Shown: positions 1 through 46,959 of the stretch, piece after piece | Position numbering within the stretch: position 1 is the stretch's first letter | Layout of the letters: every line of letters starts with the position of its first letter | Origin: a virus | Direction: 5' to 3' (one strand) | Length of the DNA: 46,959 bases | UHGV virus genome: UHGV-1362024 | Notes under the pieces: generated by a model | What the model saw: only the letters and a program-made list of their open reading frames with translations | Databases searched by the model: none | What the model was told of the DNA's origin: nothing | Translations under genes and position numbers: made by a program

Positions 1-2393
1 TGTATTCCGTCAGAAGCAAACCATGAATGCGTAGAACCGTATGCATAATCTGCCGCATTCTCTCCGAAAATGTATTGCAGGTTTATAAATGTGCAATTAA
101 GATCTGCGGCTACCGTTCTGGCTCTGGCGGCCATTGAAGCCATCGATACCGGGTTGTCAGTTCTTTGGTTCTCACACGGCATGACAAACAGGATATCAGC
201 GCCGGGCAATGTCGCCCTGATGCGGGCGATAAAGGAGCGCAGGTTAGACTCAAATGCAGTAGCGCCACCAGTTATCCTCTGGTCATTTGTGCCGGTAATA
301 ATAATCACCGTATCAAGAGCTAATTCTGTTAAAGCCTTGCCAAAATCAGTAGCGTCCATAGATAACCATGATGCAAGACTTGAGCCAGACGCACCTAGCT
401 TATGAACGCTAACGCCTGCCCCTGTTCCTATTGGTTTTAATCCGCAAAGCGAAACTGTACCAGAAACGTTTTCTATATTTAGAACGTTAGACGCATTTAC
501 GGTCGCTGGCGGGTTAATATCGACAAAAAGCAATCCACTACCTTGCACGTTGAGCGTCGTCCACGCACCTCCATCCCAGTTATATCGAATAACACCGTCG
601 CTTGTACCGACAAACCCAAGGCGGCAAGTTGACCACCCGCCGTCCGAGGTGCCAGGGACCGTAGCCTTCAGTGCATCCCCTGGTGTAGAGGACGTAACAA
701 CAGCAGTATCTGGACTGGAGTTGGTTGGGTTTTTCGTGCCGCTATAACTAAACAACCATGATCCTGTCCATGTGAATTGCGTTGGCAGGTCGCTGCTGAC
801 TGAGAAAATGTTGCCGTTAATTATTGATGCGGATGTGCTGTGACGGCCGAATGATACCCAGCCAACACCAGGACCACTACCATATTTAGCACGAATCGCT
901 TTTGCTAAAGGTTTCGCGAATCTTTCGGTTAATGTTCCCCATGAATCGCCAAAAATACCAACATTAAGAATGGCCGATACACCGGCTTCTAGTTGCCCCA
1001 ATTTCATCCGAGTAACGCGAAGCTGATAGGCTCTCTCTACATAATCGACGACTGGGGCTGCTGTAGTTGGTATTAAAGACGGGTCCAGCTGTAATGCATA
1101 TGGCTGGTAACTTGTGGATTCATTACCTTTTTCGAATTGCATCGTATCGAGTACGGTATTTGCGACTGACATTCGTACATAAGCTGCCCCAACCGGAATA
1201 GTTAAAGTCCTGGCTGTTGATGGAGAGGCTAGCGCTTCAACGCCAGAAATATAATTTTTGTTTGCATCGTAGAACGCGGTTTGATGCGAAAAACTTTGGG
1301 TGTAATTCTCTCCGGCTATTACGGGAATATAGTCAGAAGCAGAATACGATGAGTTAGCGATTAAATTACCTGTCGGATAGTTAACGTAATACCCCGATGT
1401 GACGGCAGCTTTATCAAAAAGGTTAACTCCTGGAATGAAAAATGATGCTTTATCCACTGTGACGGCGGCCTTTTGAATTGAAGAAGTAGTCACAACGTTG
1501 TTTTGCAGAGGCACTGCATAGGGGGCCACGGGTCTACCAGGCACAGTTGGATGTGCTTCGGATGTAGCAGACATCAAAAACACTGCGTCCAGCTCTACCG
1601 TACCCGCATTAGCGGTGTTTTCGATACGCACATCCAGCATAACCGCCCCAGATGGGACTGTTAGAGTGCGCAAATACCGATTGAACCCTGTTCCGGTGGC
1701 GTATAATAAATCCTGTGTCCCTATAGCAGTACCAGACGCATTACGAAAAACAAAAGCAACGCGCCCACCAGCGTTGGCGTACCATGCGATAACATTTAAA
1801 GATATGGTATCCCCGACAGCCACGGCACAATCGGCGAGCCATAATCTGCGAGCGGCAATGGCGCCCGCGGCGGGGCCAGCCACAATAGCCGGGAAGCCTA
1901 ATTTAGCATTGGTCGACAAAGCCGCGGTTAACGTTCCGCTAACAATGTGTGTTTTGCTTCCCACGGTAGGATTGGATAGCAATACCTCAAATAGCGGATC
2001 AAACAAAACATTCAAACCGGAATCAACGGCTTTTGATGCTTTGTCTACTGATTGTTGTGACGGCATTGCACGACCAGTTGCTGTTAGAGTACCAGCTACA
2101 TTTTGATATTCCAGCGCCAGAGATGCACCCGAAGCATCGCGCACGTATGTGTAAGAGTTGACCGGTATATTAGCAATATCAGCCTGTGCATCAGAAAGTG
2201 TCATATATTGCTTACCAAGAGGAATAAGATTTTTTCTTACCCCATCAATGGTATATCTTTCCACGCCGAATCTATCAGTGTATTTCTCGCTATCTGAATT
2301 TACAATCTCATCAACTTTTTCGCAGTTGAATCTAAAATCATTCAGGTCATTAGATGGAATTGGCTTGTTAGTTGGGGTAGTAGCCATTGGCTG
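1..2393 (-). CDS. Tail fibre / tailspike protein with C-terminal SGNH (GDSL-type) esterase module; 3' end runs off the window start (797+ aa seen)
   Basis: Hand translation of the minus strand from ATG at 2393 (RBS GGAG 9 nt upstream) is open to position 1. No minus ORFs are listed here, as expected for an ORF with no stop in the window. It shows GDS block I (VGIFGDSWGT), GxND block III (IIITGTNDQR) and DGI(H) block V at the window edge. It sits directly downstream of the J-like gene. Confidence 0.8.
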
Positions 2394-14052: not shown

Positions 14053-14129
14053 GCACCATTAGCTCATCAGGATAGAGCAATTGCCTTCTAAGCAATCGGT
14101 AACTGGTTCGAATCCAGTATGGTGCACCA
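14053..14129 (+). tRNA. tRNA-Arg (anticodon TCT), CCA encoded
   Basis: Manual cloverleaf. Acceptor GCACCAT/ATGGTGC (7 WC pairs), D-stem GCTC/GAGC, anticodon stem ATTGC/GCAAT with loop CTTCTAA, T-arm ACTGG-TTCGAAT-CCAGT, discriminator A. Confidence 0.8.
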
Positions 14130-14132
14130 AAT

Positions 14133-14209
14133 TCCCGTTTAGCTTAACTGGTTAAAGCACCCGACTCATAATCGGATGATTACAGGTTCGAATCCTGTCG
14201 CGGGAACCA
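14133..14209 (+). tRNA. tRNA-Met (anticodon CAT), CCA encoded; two stem mismatches
   Basis: Acceptor TCCCGTT/CGCGGGA (one GU, one mismatch), D-stem GCTT/AAGC, anticodon loop CTCATAA, T-arm ACAGG-TTCGAAT-CCTGT. Confidence 0.55.
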
Positions 14210-42530: not shown

Positions 42531-42573
42531 TTACTCACACCAGCAACAACGCTGAGTGATTCGAGAGGACACT

Positions 42574-43416
42574 ATGAGCTTATCAATGATTCAAAAACCA
42601 AAACCAGTTTCACCTATCATTACTCTTGTTGGCACCCCTGGCGTTGGCAAGACTACTCTGGCAGCGCTTTTCCCTAAGCCTGTTTTCATTCAGGCGGAAG
42701 AGATTACCGGTGTATTCGACGACTGGGACGAAGAAAACAAGCCTGACTCATTCCCGGTGCTGAAACGAGCTGATGCAAAGCGCAAGACGAGCACCAAAGA
42801 AGACTTGTTGTCGCAGTTGCGCGCTCTTATCACAGAAGAGCATGACTATAAAACGCTGGTTATCGACTCCATCACCAGCCTACACGCCATGTTTGAGCAT
42901 GAGGTTTGCGAAAACTATGGAGTAGATAACGTTGGCGCAGCAGCGGGTGGTTACAACAAGGGCTATCTGGTTGTGGCGGAGATGCATGCTGAAATTATTA
43001 ACGCCTGCAAGTATCTTCGTTCCAACAAAGGTATGAGCATCATTTATCTTGCGCATGCTGGCATACGTAAGATGAAGAACCGACCAGATTCTGACGAATA
43101 CACCGTTTATACCCTCAATATGCACGAAGCCAGTATTGATGGTTACGTTGCGCTTAGCGATGCTGTTATCTATATCCGCAATGAGGAGTTTGTGAAGGGT
43201 GCTGAGACAGATAAAAAAGGCCAGGTAACTAAGTTCGGTAAAGTTGTGCAGACAGGGCAGCGTGTACTTGTCACCTCTGGTGATGGACGGGTTGGTTACG
43301 TTAATGCGAAAAATCGCTTCAACCTTGAGCCTGAGATTCAGTTTGATAAAGGAGAAAATCCACTTCTGACAGAGATTAAGTATTATGCGTCTTTACGAGA
43401 TAACGAAACAGCTTAA
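42574..43416 (+). CDS. Sak4-like RecA-family ATPase (AAA_24-type single-strand annealing / recombination accessory protein)
   Basis: Walker A LVGTPGVGKTT near the N-terminus, in a recombination module with Gp157-like and SSB genes. RBS CGAGAGGACA. Listed from 42556. Confidence 0.7.
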   Translation: MSLSMIQKPKPVSPIITLVGTPGVGKTTLAALFPKPVFIQAEEITGVFDDWDEENKPDSFPVLKRADAKRKTSTKEDLLSQLRALITEEHDYKTLVIDSITSLHAMFEHEVCENYGVDNVGAAAGGYNKGYLVVAEMHAEIINACKYLRSNKGMSIIYLAHAGIRKMKNRPDSDEYTVYTLNMHEASIDGYVALSDAVIYIRNEEFVKGAETDKKGQVTKFGKVVQTGQRVLVTSGDGRVGYVNAKNRFNLEPEIQFDKGENPLLTEIKYYASLRDNETA

Positions 43417-43864
43417 CGAACTGCTTGCGATGGAAGATATTCCGCGCGAGCAGATTGAAGATACCATTAACCTGATTGAGGAGGAGTTTGAAGGAAAGGC
43501 CGAGATGGTGGCCGCTTATATCAGCGAGCTTGAGGCGGATGAGGCTGGCATGAAGGCTGAGATTGTTCGCCTGTCAGAACGCAAACGTGTGCTGACTGCG
43601 AAGATAGATAACCTTAAAGATTATCTTCGTCAGAACATGCTGGCATCTGGAAAAACGAATATCAAAGGCAAGCTTTTCAGCATCACGCTTGGCAAACCAT
43701 CTCCTGTTTTGGATGTGCTTGTCCCGGTTGAGCAGTTGCCTGAGAAGTATCGCGTTGTAAATTTTTCGGCAGATAATGCAGCCATTAAAGCAGCACTGAA
43801 AGCCGGAACTGAAATTAAAGGTTGTGCCATCACCGATGGAAAACCAAAGCTGATCATCAAATAA
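43385..43864 (+). CDS. Siphovirus Gp157-family protein
   Basis: 159-aa coiled-coil protein adjacent to Sak4, the canonical pairing. The 5' end overlaps Sak4 by 32 nt. Confidence 0.55.
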   Translation: MRLYEITKQLNELLAMEDIPREQIEDTINLIEEEFEGKAEMVAAYISELEADEAGMKAEIVRLSERKRVLTAKIDNLKDYLRQNMLASGKTNIKGKLFSITLGKPSPVLDVLVPVEQLPEKYRVVNFSADNAAIKAALKAGTEIKGCAITDGKPKLIIK

Positions 43865-43880
43865 TCGAGAGGACATAAAA

Positions 43881-44417
43881 ATGGGTTTCTGGAATCTTTC
43901 TGACGGTAAAGAAGTTGAGTCAAAGTCTGAATTTGAGGCTGGTGGTGGTTTTGAAGTTATTCCTGACGGCACCCGCGTGCTGGCTGCTGTTGAAGAGTGC
44001 AAGGACGATGAATGGGAAGGTGAGCGCTTCTTTAACCTTAAATGGCGCATCCTGGACGATGATTACAAAAATCGTATCATCTTCCAGAAGCTAAAGGTTT
44101 TCAGCCAGAAGGACAAGCAGCGCGATAACGCTATCAGCATGCTGGCAGCAATTGATGCAAACGCTGGAGGTAAATTGATGGCGTCAGGGAAAGAGCCTAC
44201 TGATTTTGCAATCGCAAGTGCGCTGGCTAACCGCCCGATGATCCTCCTGCTTCGCGTCTGGCAGTCTGACGATAAGCAGAAATCAGGTAACTACGTCGCT
44301 GGCGTCTTTGGTCGCCAGCAAACTAAATCCGCTACAGCAGCAAAGCCACAAAAGCAAACGGCAAAGCCACAGGGTGAAGAGCCGCCGATGGATTTCGATG
44401 AAGATATTCCGTTTTGA
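43881..44417 (+). CDS. Putative ssDNA-binding protein (non-canonical fold) carrying a bacterial SSB-type C-terminal tail DFDEDIPF
   Basis: The C-terminus PMDFDEDIPF matches the SSB-Ct interaction motif. Position is in the Sak4/Gp157 module. RBS CGAGAGGACA. No OB-fold signature recognised by eye. Confidence 0.5.
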   Translation: MGFWNLSDGKEVESKSEFEAGGGFEVIPDGTRVLAAVEECKDDEWEGERFFNLKWRILDDDYKNRIIFQKLKVFSQKDKQRDNAISMLAAIDANAGGKLMASGKEPTDFAIASALANRPMILLLRVWQSDDKQKSGNYVAGVFGRQQTKSATAAKPQKQTAKPQGEEPPMDFDEDIPF

Positions 44418-44432
44418 TTTTAATAAGTAACC

Positions 44433-44455
44433 AAGGGCCATTCGTGGCCCTTTTT
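44433..44455 (+). terminator. Rho-independent terminator (AAGGGCCATTCGTGGCCCTTTTT)
   Basis: Hairpin plus T-run after the SSB-like gene. Confidence 0.7.
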
Positions 44456-44471
44456 CATTCGAGAGGACATT

Positions 44472-46334
44472 ATGAAATATACGCTAAGGCCATACCAGCA
44501 GGAAGCGGTTGACGCGGCTATGGCACATATCAGAAGCACAATTTCATCATGCGTAATAATTCTCCCTACTGGCGCAGGCAAGTCAATGGTTGTCGCTGAG
44601 CTTGCAGCACGCATCTATGAGATGAGTAAAAAGCGTGTGCTTTGCATTGCTCCAACCGGGGAACTTGTGACACAGAATCGATCTAAATACCTTTTAACTG
44701 GCGAGCCAGCAAGCATGTTCAGCGCCAAGGCTGGCCCTAAAAATCTGCGCCACCCTGTTGTTTTTGGCTCTCCTGTCACAATCAAAAACTCTATTGAAAT
44801 GTTCGGCGATAAATATGGAGCTGTAATTATTGACGAGTGCGACGGAATCACGCCAACCATTAAATTTATTATTAATGAGATGAGGCGTCGCAACCCAAAG
44901 CTGCGCATCATTGGCATGACCGCAACGCCTTATCGCCTTGGTACGGGGTACATATTTAAAGATCATTACCAGTCCGGCCCCACTGATGAAGAGACAGCCA
45001 TTGATCCTTACTATGACAAGGTTGTTTATGAGCTTGAGGCAAAATTCCTGATTGATAATGGCTATCTGACTCCTCCAGTTACTGAGCACGTAGAAGAAGA
45101 ATATGATACCTCTGGACTTGAGAAGGATAAGCTTGGGCGTTATACAACGGCATCGGTAGAGCGCGCCATGGTTGGAAAAGGACGCAAGACGTCTCGCATT
45201 GTTGAGGATATCGTCAGGCGATCAGTGAATCGCCGGGGAACTATGATTTTCGCCAGCACGAAAAAGCATGCCATGGAGATTATGGAATCTCTGCCTCCTG
45301 GTAGTTATAGCTATGTTTTCGGTGATATGCCTACTGCTGAGCGCAATAAGGCGATATCAGATTTTAAGGCGCAGAAGGTTAAATACATTGTCAACCAGAA
45401 TATCCTTACGGTTGGCGTCGATGTGCCACATTGCGATCATATTGCTGTAATGCGCGCCACAGAGTCGCCGCGCCTGTATCAGCAGATAATAGGTCGTGGA
45501 ACCAGGCTATACGAAGGTAAGGAAAACTTTCTCGTTAGCGACTATGCAGGAAACATAGAGCGTCATTTTGCTGAGACAGGAGACCTGTTTACTCCTGAGA
45601 TTAAAGCAACACGAAAAAAACCATCTGTTCCAATGGAAGTAAAATGCCCATCGTGCGGATTTGTTAATGAATTTGGAGTGCGTCCAAATCCAGAAGGCCT
45701 TGAGATGGACAGTGAGGGATATTGGCTTGATCTATCTGGTGACAGAATAATGGTAGAAATTTATGATAAATCTGGCGAAAAGATAGGGCAAAAGCCAATG
45801 CCCGGACACTTTGGGCGCCGCTGTAAGAACTATATTATGGTTGGTGCGCTGCGTGAAATGCGTCGCTGCACGTATAAATGGTCATTCAAAGAGTGCCCTG
45901 ATTGTGGTTTTGAAAATGATATTGCTGCTCGTAACTGCGTGAGCTGCAAAGCAGAAATTATTGATCCAAACAAGAAGCTACAGGAAGAGGCTGCAAGACT
46001 TGATGCTGCGCCAGATGCAACCAAGCAATCAAAAGTTACAATGATGAGCATAACTCGCCACTATGTAAGCAGTGGTGATGATATGTTGGTAGTTAAGTTT
46101 GCTATTGAGCAGTCGCCATGGTTCGTTAACAAATTCTTTAAACCCATGGCAGAAAAGACGTGGCAAAGAAGAGAATGGGAAGACTTCAGTATTAAATCTT
46201 TTGGAGAGGTACTGGAAATAGATGAAGCACTATCTAGAAGAGAAGATGCCACACATCCTACTGCCATTATGTTCAGAAAGGATAAAGGCAGCAAATATTA
46301 CAATGTGAAAGGAATGTATTGGGGTGAGTTATGA
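44472..46334 (+). CDS. Superfamily II DEAD/DEAH-type helicase with C-terminal zinc-ribbon region
   Basis: Motif I LPTGAGKS, motif II IIDECD, arginine-finger-type QQIIGRGTR, C-terminal CPSCG...CPDCG...CVSCK. RBS CGAGAGGACA. Confidence 0.85.
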   Translation: MKYTLRPYQQEAVDAAMAHIRSTISSCVIILPTGAGKSMVVAELAARIYEMSKKRVLCIAPTGELVTQNRSKYLLTGEPASMFSAKAGPKNLRHPVVFGSPVTIKNSIEMFGDKYGAVIIDECDGITPTIKFIINEMRRRNPKLRIIGMTATPYRLGTGYIFKDHYQSGPTDEETAIDPYYDKVVYELEAKFLIDNGYLTPPVTEHVEEEYDTSGLEKDKLGRYTTASVERAMVGKGRKTSRIVEDIVRRSVNRRGTMIFASTKKHAMEIMESLPPGSYSYVFGDMPTAERNKAISDFKAQKVKYIVNQNILTVGVDVPHCDHIAVMRATESPRLYQQIIGRGTRLYEGKENFLVSDYAGNIERHFAETGDLFTPEIKATRKKPSVPMEVKCPSCGFVNEFGVRPNPEGLEMDSEGYWLDLSGDRIMVEIYDKSGEKIGQKPMPGHFGRRCKNYIMVGALREMRRCTYKWSFKECPDCGFENDIAARNCVSCKAEIIDPNKKLQEEAARLDAAPDATKQSKVTMMSITRHYVSSGDDMLVVKFAIEQSPWFVNKFFKPMAEKTWQRREWEDFSIKSFGEVLEIDEALSRREDATHPTAIMFRKDKGSKYYNVKGMYWGEL

Positions 46335-46789
46335 TTTTTCCTGAGTGGTTAAAGATTTATGGTGAAAAGGACTACCGCAATAAAAAATGTCCTGTAGAAG
46401 ATGCTGAACTTGTAACATTCATAAATCAGTTGAAGAGAATGTATCCTGACAGTTTTGGGCGCCTTGTTCTTCACGTCCCAAACGAGGGGAAGAGAAGAGC
46501 GCACGAAGTTAATAATCTAAAAAAGAAGGGAGCTTTAAACAAAGGAGCTTCAGATATAATAATCCCTGGGAACCCATCACTTGTCATTGAGATGAAGAGG
46601 AGAGACCATACACTTTGCGAATGGGAGGATGGTCAGCTTGAGTATCTTGAGGCAAGTAAAAAAGTAGGGTGCTTTGTGTGCGTATGCCTTGGATGGGAAG
46701 CTGCCATGATGGCATTCAATGACTGGAGAGCAACGCATTACCCTTTGAAAAAGCCTCATGATAAGAGCATACAAATTGATAGTTTTTGA
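46331..46789 (+). CDS. VRR-NUC domain nuclease (PD-(D/E)xK fold)
   Basis: GASDIIIPGNPSLVIEMKRRD motif typical of VRR-NUC (D...E.K). ATGA-coupled to the helicase. Confidence 0.65.
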   Translation: MIFPEWLKIYGEKDYRNKKCPVEDAELVTFINQLKRMYPDSFGRLVLHVPNEGKRRAHEVNNLKKKGALNKGASDIIIPGNPSLVIEMKRRDHTLCEWEDGQLEYLEASKKVGCFVCVCLGWEAAMMAFNDWRATHYPLKKPHDKSIQIDSF

Positions 46790-46864
46790 ATGAAACCATC
46801 AAACACGTCAAAATCACCAGCAAACGAGCCGACGATGGATTTTGATGATGATATTCCGTTTTGA
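46790..46864 (+). CDS. 24-codon mini-ORF ending in an SSB-type tail (MKPSNTSKSPANEPTMDFDDDIPF); duplicated copy of the SSB 3' end
   Basis: The 39 nt GAGCCGACGATGGATTTTGATGATGATATTCCGTTTTGA are 36/39 identical to the SSB gene 3' end. The ATG abuts the VRR-NUC stop (TGAATG). It is followed by a terminator paralogous to the SSB terminator. Confidence 0.35.
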   Translation: MKPSNTSKSPANEPTMDFDDDIPF

Positions 46865-46869
46865 TGAAG

Positions 46870-46891
46870 AAAGGGCCGAATGGCCCTTTTT
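46870..46891 (+). terminator. Rho-independent terminator (AAGGGCCGAATGGCCCTTTTTG), paralog of the 44433 terminator
   Basis: Hairpin plus T-run. Confidence 0.7.
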
Positions 46892-46959
46892 GTTATCTCA
46901 TTGTCATTACACGATATATTGCATCTTTTATTAAATACCCTCCAGTAGCAGGGGCTGGA

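Follow-up and report, generated by a model that had tools for sequence, protein, structure and literature searches.

A reading frame of 24 codons lies between a nuclease gene and a convergent tail-fibre gene in the virus genome UHGV-1362024, the 46,959 nucleotides of which are referred to here, as a whole, as the window. The peptide that it would encode ends in the same way as the SSB (the protein that binds single-stranded DNA) of Escherichia coli, which raises the question of whether the frame is a small gene, a copy of a gene end found elsewhere in the window, or the remnant of a longer gene. The comparisons presented here indicate that it is very probably a pseudogene relic, a non-functional fragment of the 3' end of an ssb gene of the canonical OB-fold type.

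Gene content of the locus

The reading frame is preceded, on the same strand, by a replication and recombination module, which is made up of the following elements.

42556-43416, + strand: Sak4-like RecA-family annealing ATPase, the first gene of the module (Pfam AAA_24, 1.7e-27; PHROG 124 'Sak4-like ssDNA annealing protein', 4.7e-45)
43385-43864, + strand: Siphovirus Gp157 / Mu Gam-like protein (Pfam PF05565, 3.9e-37; PHROG 253)
43881-44417, + strand: DUF669-type phage SSB (Pfam DUF669, PF05037, 21.9 bits, cut-off 21; PHROG 9002 'single strand DNA binding protein', 5.4e-67)
44433-44452: terminator-like hairpin downstream of the DUF669 gene, AAGGGCCATTCGTGGCCCTT followed by a T-run (terminator scan; fold -13 kcal/mol)
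44472-46334, + strand: Superfamily-2 helicase (Pfam ResIII, 2.5e-19; Helicase_C, 7.1e-17)
46331-46789, + strand: VRR-NUC-fold PD-(D/E)XK nuclease, with its TGA stop at 46787-46789 (AlphaFold/Foldseek)

The product of 43881-44417 is identified as a DUF669 phage SSB of the type that partners Sak4, on the basis of the Pfam match, the presence of the Sak4 gene two genes upstream, and an acidic tail that ends in PF. This native tail (...EEPPMDFDEDIPF, with the tip MDFDEDIPF), for which the 39 nt at 44379-44417 code, is preceded by the linker residues …KPQGEEPP. An ending of the form (I/V/M)PF is found in 78 of 90 clusters of DUF669 homologues, which indicates that the tail is native to its own family. 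The same combination of Sak4 with a DUF669 SSB that bears an acidic ...PF tail is found in HK620, in which the DUF669 protein is a proven SSB, and its last six residues are needed for the stimulation of Sak4 (Hutinet et al. 2018, PMC5928155). The tail of the window is nevertheless of the E. coli type (DFDEDIPF), unlike that of HK620 (NDYPPF), and the relic discussed below is not part of the DUF669 gene.

The label VRR-NUC, which had been given to the nuclease in the earlier note, is supported at the level of the fold, although not at that of the sequence. The protein has no sequence match in Pfam (even at E <= 10), NCBIfam, or the PDB, and no Pfam domains were found among 120 clusters of its homologues. 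The AlphaFold model (pLDDT 88.9), by contrast, is matched best by Foldseek to VRR_NUC 4qbl, with a probability of 1.0 and a TM of 0.74-0.76, with further matches to 4qbo, 4qbn, and FAN1, while the PD-(D/E)XK catalytic residues, D75, E87, and K89, do not vary among 43 homologues.

The region that follows the nuclease contains the elements that are central to the present question.

46790-46864, + strand: probable ssb relic, an ATG followed by the last 23 codons of ssb (linker end and the tip MDFDDDIPF) and the stop codon
46826-46864, + strand: 39-nt stretch matching the DUF669 gene end (36/39 to 44379-44417; 39/39 to the full-length ssb tails of loci L001 and L039)
46871-46891: bidirectional intrinsic terminator hairpin, AAAGGGCC-GAAT-GGCCCTTT (fold -19.1 kcal/mol, z = -5.5)
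46893-46959, - strand: 3' end of the tail-fibre gene (stop codon 46893-46895; annotated in BUCT541 as a tail-fibre protein)

The hairpin, which has an A-run upstream and a T-run downstream, separates the stop of the relic (46864) from that of the convergent tail-fibre gene (46893). It was omitted by a simple terminator scan, probably because its T-run is partly paired. The end of the window joins its start, in the same arrangement as in BUCT541, and the tail-fibre gene runs across the two ends to its own start at position 2387 (817 aa).

Origin of the reading frame

Several observations of the earlier note were reproduced directly from the sequence, including the ATG that directly abuts the TGA stop of the nuclease (TGAATG), the identity of 36/39 nt between 44379-44417 and 46826-46864, and a peptide that resembles an SSB C-terminal tail (SSB-Ct). 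The translation of 46790-46864 is MKPSNTSKSPANEPTMDFDDDIPF, and its last nine residues are identical to residues 170-178 of E. coli SSB (PDB 1eqq). The stop of the nuclease gene is separated from that of ssb by 24 codons only, and the OB-fold domain is absent from the frame.

The source of these codons is indicated by phages that carry the whole gene. In megablast, positions 46794-46959 align at 94-96% with the 3' end of full-length ssb and the end of the tail-fibre gene in the related Klebsiella siphoviruses BUCT541 (ssb UAW06832.1), KpV2811, and vB_KpnS_ZX4 (ZX4). The blastn alignment with BUCT541 begins at 46794 and extends over 3164 nt at 96.6%, with no homology to the left of 46794. The BUCT541 gene has a clear SSB domain (Pfam SSB, 2.7e-37, residues 6-107) and ends in ...GWGKPQQPSNTQKPPVNEPTMDFDDDIPF, followed by a terminator and flank identical to those of the window; the same element, with variable loops, is also found 3' of full-length ssb in other phages. 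Overall, the relic and its flanks are 94-99% identical to full-length ssb loci, from 46794 via the terminator into the tail-fibre gene, and this homology begins 3-7 nt past the nuclease stop in all of the loci with a relic of the same kind as that of the window (type 1, described below). The window is thus collinear with the phages bearing full-length ssb from 46794 onward, and the reading frame corresponds to the last 23 codons of the canonical gene. The relic occupies the same position, beside the convergent tail-fibre gene, and shares the stop and the terminator of the full-length gene; it differs in that the window lacks the whole of the OB-fold domain (about 145 codons), and in that its ATG is foreign to ssb.

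The resemblance to the DUF669 gene end had been interpreted in the earlier note as a duplication, whereby the last 39 nt of that gene and its terminator were copied when the helicase and the VRR-NUC nuclease were inserted ahead of the terminator. The 36/39 identity within the window and the GGGCC-loop-GGCCC hairpin that follows both copies are consistent with this, as is the ssb terminator loop of locus L045 (ATTC), which is similar to that of the DUF669 gene. The repeat nevertheless consists of a single blastn alignment of just 40 nt (92.5%) that is over at the stop codon, while the relic is homologous to canonical ssb loci over another 32 nt on its upstream side and over kilobases on its downstream side, and the DUF669 gene has kept its own terminator in every relative. 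The recurrence of the terminator amounts to a shared GGGCC/GGCCC stem and T-run, given that the loops differ, the spacing from the stop codon is 15 nt in one case and 6 nt in the other, and the alignment does not reach the hairpin. The best match of the supposed copy is to the 3' ends of full-length ssb genes (39/39, with collinearity over kilobases), and not to the DUF669 gene.

The degree of identity itself varies widely among the relatives. Among 22 further genomes that have the two tails, the DUF669 tail matches the relic of its own genome at 19-37/39 positions. The range is 19-33/39 for the type-1 genomes apart from the window and 29-33/39 for the closest relatives, which again argues against duplication; the value is 31/39 in the closest relative, L020, the nuclease gene of which is identical to that of the window. 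Of the 62 full-length ssb tails sampled, moreover, 14 share 36/39 positions or more with the DUF669 tail of the window. An identity of 36/39 is far above random, yet it is unremarkable among the SSB-tail-coding sequences of this phage group, and the duplication is very improbable. Both types of SSB share the host-type C-terminal motif, and their tail-coding segments appear to be swapped by recombination, which would account for the resemblance between the relic and the DUF669 gene end. The earlier suggestion of a scar is therefore retained with respect to the assembly of the module, although its source and mechanism differ, given that the DUF669 terminator has been kept and the homology is to canonical ssb.

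Variation of the relic among related phages

Relics of two main types are found in the related genomes. Type 1, which has 24 or 22 codons and begins with an ATG, occurs at 13 loci, in one of which (L011) the start is ATT, whereas type 2 has 38-39 codons of a Q-rich ssb allele, without an ATG, and occurs at 10 loci, in one of which (L016) there is an internal TAG. In the phage VLCpiS13b (L105), the relic is a 15-codon stub in the +1 frame, without a start, and its junction lies within approximately 4 nt of that of type 1 on the ssb side. The relic is absent from ECO95 1-6-1, gmqsjt-1, and Yersinia P400 (the set L103, L104, and L107). The comparison of relatives that had been proposed as a check on a decoy peptide thus revealed decay, in the form of the lost start, the internal stop, the out-of-frame stub, and the three genomes without a relic; these same signs of decay and dispensability support the interpretation of the frame as a gene fragment.

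Some features of the relic point in the opposite direction. The frame is open, with an intact tip of the DDDIPF type, in 22 of the 23 relic-bearing loci, the ATG abutting the stop (TGAATG or TAAATG) is kept in 12 of the 13 type-1 loci, the indels are multiples of three, and many of the substitutions leave the amino acids of the ssb frame unchanged. Taken alone, the open frame, the intact tip, the indels, and the synonymous changes resemble the effects of purifying selection, which would count against a pseudogene, as would the persistence of the relic in two diverged nuclease lineages (65% amino-acid identity), given that neutral DNA is usually shed from phage genomes, which are compact. This appearance is attributed here to the import of sequence from functional alleles, a process seen at several of the loci rather than at all of them, and such recombination makes dN/dS uninterpretable when calculated on the relic. 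The independent type-1 sequences in the sample are few; a metagenome scan for type-1 junctions recovered five true matches, which were mostly copies of IMG/VR contigs already sampled, together with nine chance matches.

Recombination within the relic

The variants of the relic vary together with the tail-fibre module downstream, and equivalents of them are found among the functional ssb alleles. The relic of L019, for example, matches L024-27/L030 at approximately 98.8% over 496 nt, and the relic of L010 agrees with L035/L038 to the same extent, with the linker PSSTQKTPANEPP shared as well, while the tip with a 6-nt deletion (MDDDIPF) is also found in the full-length ssb genes of L023, L032, L034, L041, and L042. 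In the window, positions 46331-46831 have no mismatches to L020, whereas the sequence from 46822 onward has none to L001/L039 over approximately 670 nt, and L020 differs from the window at 46832, 46840, 46852, 46936, and 46953. A crossover is thus evident, from these alignments, within the relic of the window at 46822-46831. In the relics of the YX3973 type, the ssb allele switches 40 nt in, and the homology of phage 6991 to the window ends exactly past the relic stop.

The relic has probably been overwritten repeatedly by the sequence of functional ssb alleles, which would maintain an apparently intact frame. The crossovers are observed within the relics themselves, whereas their role as the cause of its preservation, and the lack of a function in the peptide itself, are what we infer.

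It is also possible, although rather doubtful, that the relic has been kept by (second-order) selection as a linker for the exchange of tail-fibre, or host-range, cassettes between phages with different replication modules. The origin of the relic would be the same as in the interpretation preferred here, with no other homology being shared on that side, as seen in the comparison of the window with BUCT541 to the left of 46794. Nine different flanks follow the 13 type-1 relics, several of them identical to the flanks of phages with full-length ssb, which is what such a linker would produce, as are the crossovers mapped inside the relics. The phages also encode annealing recombinases (Sak4 or ERF), and recombineering with Sak4 tolerates 12% divergence (PMC5928155). 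It is difficult to demonstrate selection for evolvability, however, and the relic has been lost in three relatives, while the terminator and the 3' end of the tail-fibre gene could equally supply the homology. The small size of the relic and its repeated re-import would suffice for its persistence.

Coding potential of the reading frame

The sequence TGAATG is a context that permits termination followed by reinitiation. Some translation of the type-1 frame through this coupling of stop and start is plausible, judging from the arrangement of the codons. There is no Shine-Dalgarno motif ahead of the ATG in ACAAATTGATAGTTTTTGA, no promoter is listed within 46790-46895, and the 24-codon frame is not annotated in the GenBank records of four relatives. 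An Rfam search of the relic and its surroundings found no family, and its one match, to the rimP leader (23.6 bits against a threshold of 47, E = 0.76), is taken as chance.

The last nine residues of the peptide are those of the E. coli SSB-Ct (...PSNEPPMDFDDDIPF; PDB 1eqq), with NEP(P/T) ahead of them, although here the tail is attached to neither a DNA-binding domain nor a tetramer. The SSB-Ct motif is described as binding ExoI, RecQ, PriA, RecO, chi, and other partners (PMC7913777), and if the frame were translated, it would supply a free SSB-Ct peptide, comparable to the synthetic peptides and small-molecule mimics of PMC3159472 and PMC3594151, which are laboratory reagents, unlike a candidate peptide encoded by a phage.

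This is the basis of the reading in which a type-1 relic has been co-opted, with reinitiation at the ATG producing a free peptide of 22-24 aa that competes with the host SSB or the phage DUF669 SSB. The stop-start arrangement of 12 of the 13 type-1 loci and the E. coli-type tip are compatible with this, as are accounts in the same two sources that blocked SSB-Ct interactions harm bacteria, and that SSB-Ct peptides compete in vitro. The lack of a Shine-Dalgarno sequence tells against it, together with the ATT of L011, the type-2 and VLCpiS13b relics without a start, and the relatives with no relic at all. The variation in the relic also mirrors that of the functional ssb alleles and their flanks, and is thus explained by recombination, while a free tail would be expected, from the data of PMC5928155, to compete with the phage's own interaction between the DUF669 tail and Sak4, and the literature searches found no free SSB-Ct peptide encoded by a phage. 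A co-opted decoy is very improbable. It is likewise very improbable that, in the sub-lineage of type 1, to which the window, phage 6991, RSU-F4K5, VLCpiS13c, and others belong, the ATG created by the junction yields a free peptide of 22-24 residues that titrates ExoI, RecQ, PriA, RecO, and other partners, or tunes the Sak4-DUF669 pair. If this were true, the peptide would be a decoy, of natural origin, for the hub of SSB interactions.

The relic is in the frame of the nuclease, with one stop between them, at the junctions of both type 1 and type 2, which would be expected if the nuclease stop were read through, or had been acquired recently in a gene that encoded a fusion of the nuclease with an SSB tail. 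This recoding is extremely improbable, given that TGA, TAA, and TAG are all used as the nuclease stop, the relic lies in the +1 frame in VLCpiS13b and is missing from three relatives, and all 120 clusters of nuclease homologues are 132-152 aa in length, none of them a fusion. The window encodes no suppressor tRNA, its tRNAs being tRNA-Arg(tct) and tRNA-Met only. Readthrough and an ancestral fusion were rejected on these grounds, and a frameshift on GTTTTTGA was also discarded, given that, as read from the sequence, slippage by either -1 or +1 misses the frame of the relic. Recent capture from a host ssb was ruled out by a search with the version of the 39-mer most frequent among the phages, which has CCG in place of the ACG of the window; it has no exact match in 185,579 representative bacterial species genomes.

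The pseudogene fragment remains the preferred interpretation, and the frame merits neither annotation as a gene nor a report as a decoy. The chief value of the analysis lies in this correction, which identifies an ordinary gene remnant at the boundary of a phage module.

Probable exchange of replication modules

One of two alternative replication and recombination modules occupies the region between the primase/cro genes and the convergent tail-fibre gene in this group of phages. Module A, which is carried by the phages with the full-length ssb beside the tail-fibre gene, consists of a helicase, a RecE-like exonuclease, ERF, in some cases an HNH gene, and SSB, while module B comprises Sak4, Gp157, the DUF669 SSB, a helicase, and the VRR-NUC-fold nuclease. 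In the lineage of the window, which is that of a Klebsiella phage, module A was probably replaced by module B; the position of the junction can be read directly from the alignments, while the direction of the replacement is the presumed one. The right-hand junction fell in the part of ssb that encodes the disordered linker, 23 codons ahead of the stop, so that the replacement spared the codons of the tail, the terminator of ssb, and the tail-fibre gene, and the relic would now be transcribed as the 3' untranslated region of the module-B operon. The relic is the sole homology common to the phages of the two modules to the left of the tail-fibre gene.

The junctions of mosaic tailed phages are a product of modular evolution, in which conserved boundary sequences act as recombination sites. 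The present locus is similar, with alternative, non-homologous modules at a single position, sharp breakpoints of homology at or inside gene ends, and leftovers on both sides, that is, an ssb relic in the module-B phages and a relic of the nuclease and a Zn-finger gene in the module-A phages. It differs from the usual junctions in that the shared patch encodes a protein-interaction motif common to two non-homologous families of SSB (OB-fold and DUF669), and may therefore also mediate exchange between the genes of these families.

Given this, the locus provides a clean example of a single phage group that alternates between ERF/SSB and Sak4/DUF669-SSB modules, with reciprocal scars on both sides, and in which the few dozen nucleotides that code for the SSB C-terminal motif may act as a portable patch of homology. 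Crossovers in this patch would join OB-fold ssb to DUF669 contexts, and would move the adjacent tail-fibre (host-range) cassette between module backgrounds that are otherwise unrelated, which bears on the diversification of the host range of Klebsiella phages and on phage engineering.

The opposite side of the exchange appears to be preserved in the module-A phages L021 and L022, in which ssb is followed by a decayed Zn-finger gene and a 3' fragment of the nuclease gene. Over 272 nt, these fragments share 86.8% identity with the region of L014 that includes the DUF669 tail, the terminator, and the Zn-finger gene, and are interpreted, from this alignment, as the reciprocal scar of the exchange of modules.

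Genomic Context of the Mini-ORF

The window is a complete, circularly permuted phage genome, in which the tail-fibre gene spans the window ends, and is missing from the ORF listing because it runs off the window end. Genes for tRNA-Arg(tct) and tRNA-Met(cat) lie side by side at 14053-14209.

Features of the operon and its downstream boundary
42556-43416, rightward: Sak4-like ATPase, first gene of the operon
43385-43864, rightward: Gp157/Gam-like protein
43881-44417, rightward: DUF669-type SSB
44433-44452: terminator of the DUF669 gene itself
44472-46334, rightward: SF2 helicase
46331-46789, rightward: nuclease, 152 aa
46871-46891: strong hairpin and U-run 3' of the mini-ORF (-19.1 kcal/mol, z = -5.5)
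46893-46959 joined to 1-2387, minus strand: convergent tail-fibre gene, 817 aa (stop at 46893-46895)

The TGA stop codon of the nuclease gene directly abuts the ATG of a 24-codon ORF (46790-46864), with the product MKPSNTSKSPANEPTMDFDDDIPF, and 46826-46864 is identical at 36 of 39 positions to the 39 nt with which the DUF669 gene ends (44379-44417). The earlier note described both features accurately, except that it extended the repeat to the terminator. Compared by blastn, the two regions align over just one stretch of 40 nt (92.5%), which ends at the stop codon, and the two terminators have only a GGGCC/GGCCC stem in common, with unlike loops and stop spacing.

Origin in a Canonical ssb Gene

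The matches of window 46300-46959 to GenBank phages (megablast) split into two groups. Six records, including Klebsiella phages 6991, RSU-F4K5, VLCpiS13c, and XY3, cover both the nuclease gene and the ORF. In BUCT541, KpV2811, ZX4, and others, the match (94-96%) begins only at query base 495 (window 46794) and continues to the end of the query; on their side it comprises the 3' portion of a full-length gene annotated as ssb, together with the terminal part of the tail-fibre gene. The BUCT541 module runs helicase, hypothetical protein, RecE-like exonuclease, ERF, HNH, and SSB, and the ssb product has a Pfam SSB domain (2.7e-37) and the C-terminus ...GWGKPQQPSNTQKPPVNEPTMDFDDDIPF, followed by the terminator and flank exactly as in the window. 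The homology with the window covers 3164 nt from 46794 (96.6%), with none upstream (blastn). Given this collinearity, the ORF consists of the junction ATG and the 3'-terminal 23 codons of a canonical ssb gene, rather than being the DUF669 duplicate that the earlier note had proposed. Homology to full-length ssb in loci of this type (type 1, below) always starts 3-7 nt past the nuclease stop.

An SSB-Ct-like tail is native to the DUF669 family, where 78 of 90 clusters of homologues, among them members at 40-50% identity, have a terminal (I/V/M)PF. In HK620, the stimulation of Sak4 needs this tail (PMC5928155). The window's DUF669 tail is identical at 36 or more of 39 positions to 14 of the 62 full-length ssb tails sampled, and its relic (the ssb remnant) at 39/39 to the ssb tails of BUCT541 and locus L039. 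In 22 other genomes holding both, the DUF669 tail matches its own relic at 19-37 of 39 positions (31/39 in L020, a genome sharing an identical nuclease gene with the window). The 36/39 match is not special among SSB-tail sequences. The window's DUF669 allele, which is common to L017, has an unusually ssb-like tail, and the tail block is the part of the gene most diverged from other type-1 phages, which is consistent with tail exchange.

The window's DUF669 gene (43881-44470 compared) matches its L017 counterpart at approximately 100%, with only ~65% identity between the nucleases of the two phages. To the genes of the type-1 phages, its identity is 78-98%, lowest in the tail block. This discordance therefore indicates further mosaic breakpoints between the DUF669 and nuclease genes. 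In the protein clusters P0124 (194 aa, 30 members) and P0199, the DDDIPF tip of DUF669 is internal, followed by ~14 extra residues (...MDFDDDIPFAPVGLQYANHAIYVL), which looks like stop-codon loss, and would bury the C-terminal Phe carboxylate normally recognised by partners.

Variation of the Relic and Alternative Readings

The comparison drew on 16 IMG/VR nuclease loci, further GenBank relatives, 80 full-length ssb loci, and a metagenome junction scan, and the sequence following the nuclease stop falls into classes.

Relic classes 3' of the nuclease stop
Type 1 (13 loci, the window among them): ATG abutting the stop, followed by 23 codons of ssb (21 where the tip is MDDDIPF)
Type 2 (10 loci: YX3973, Sf11, Sa179lw-like, and others): TAG/TAA, then 38-39 codons of Q-rich ssb linker and tip
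VLCpiS13b (1 locus): stub of 15 codons, +1 frame
No relic (ECO95 1-6-1, gmqsjt-1, Yersinia P400): terminator directly 3' of the stop

The type-1 stop is TGA (TAA in RSU-F4K5), and type-2 relics have no start codon. Decay and dispensability are seen in an ATT at the start position (L011), an internal TAG (L016), the out-of-frame stub, and outright absence. In Shigella phage Sf11, the annotated 60-aa "hypothetical protein" gp12 (L106:3946-4128) overlaps the type-2 relic in another frame, and is probably a spurious gene call.

This decay, which the earlier note had itself named as refuting, tells against the free SSB-tail decoy peptide that it suggested, and it is very improbable that the type-1 relic has been co-opted to produce one by stop-start translational coupling. 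The abutting ATG lacks an upstream Shine-Dalgarno motif, no natural precedent was found in the literature searched, and the peptide would be expected, from PMC5928155, to compete also with the interaction between Sak4 and the DUF669 tail of the phage itself. The mini-ORF is annotated in none of the four GenBank relatives examined. Readthrough or fusion with the nuclease, suggested by the reading frame that the nuclease shares with the relics of types 1 and 2, also fails, given that all three stop codons are in use, one relic is out of frame, a suppressor tRNA is absent, and none of 120 homologue clusters exceeds 152 aa. A recent host origin is not supported, as an exact search of 185,579 species genomes with the 39-mer in its commonest phage form found no match. 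For an RNA element, no matching Rfam family was found.

Recombination at the Relic

Relic variants track the downstream flank, not the nuclease lineage, and have twins among functional ssb genes, such as L019 with L024-27/L030 (98.8% over 496 nt) and L010 with L035/L038 (98.8%, including the linker PSSTQKTPANEPP), while L004 resembles L034, and L008 resembles L032. The MDDDIPF tip (a 6-nt deletion) occurs in four relics and five full-length ssb genes. These five (L023, L032, L034, L041, and L042) are apparently functional without MDFDDDIPF, and the Phe-Asp of the canonical 9-residue SSB-Ct appears dispensable in their phages.

Over 46331-46831, the window and L020 are identical, and from 46822 the window is identical to BUCT541 and L039, with zero mismatches for about 670 nt after 46821; L020 departs from it at five positions within 46832-46953. 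This switch places a crossover at 46822-46831, inside the relic. In YX3973-type relics, the first 40 nt follow an E. coli-phage-type ssb allele and the remainder a Klebsiella-phage-type one, the homology of phage 6991 with the window ends exactly past the relic stop codon, and the 13 type-1 relics adjoin nine different downstream flanks. Crossovers inside relics are demonstrated. The relic would provide a short homology patch in common with phages carrying the other module, at which recombination would move tail-fibre cassettes, repeatedly overwriting the relic with functional ssb sequence filtered by selection. The simplest reading is that this overwriting from real ssb genes accounts for the relic staying intact.

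A reciprocal scar is found in L021 (3745-4182) and L022, phages of the ERF/full-ssb module, where two decayed pieces, a Zn-finger ORF and the 3' part of a gene for the VRR-NUC-fold nuclease, sit between the ssb and tail-fibre genes. From the ssb tail onward, this region shares 86.8% identity over 272 nt with the DUF669 tail, terminator, and Zn-finger gene of L014, which implies a crossover between the OB-fold ssb tail and the DUF669 tail. The DUF669 tail, terminator, and Zn-finger gene start of L014 and L103 match the L021 region past the full-length ssb tail at 85-87% over ~270 nt, in which exchange between the two tails is directly visible.

The relic belongs to a class familiar from the modular-evolution literature, the gene remnants at mosaic module boundaries of tailed phages. 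What sets it apart is the content of the shared patch, which codes for the C-terminal interaction motif of SSB proteins, present in both of two unrelated SSB families; the nuclease/Zn-finger fragment 3' of ssb in L021 and L022 adds a reciprocal scar.

The Upstream Nuclease

The "VRR-NUC" label of the earlier note holds for the fold, and finds no support from sequence models. Searches of Pfam (even at E <= 10), NCBIfam, and PDB sequences with the nuclease (46331-46789) returned zero matches, and the protein falls in PHROG 824, listed as "unknown function". The AlphaFold model (pLDDT 88.9, built on 43 homologues) has VRR_NUC 4qbl as its best match (probability 1.0, TM 0.74-0.76), with 4qbo, 4qbn, and FAN1 next, so that the predicted fold is clearly VRR-NUC; D75, E87, and K89 are invariant in the 43 homologues. 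The family comprises 389 database matches without functional assignment in Pfam, NCBIfam, or PHROG. Homologues of ~134 aa lack the C-terminal extension of ~16 residues found in this phage group, which is modelled with low confidence (pLDDT 60-64), and always ends in Phe (DSF, DGF, NEF, SHF, or NNF).
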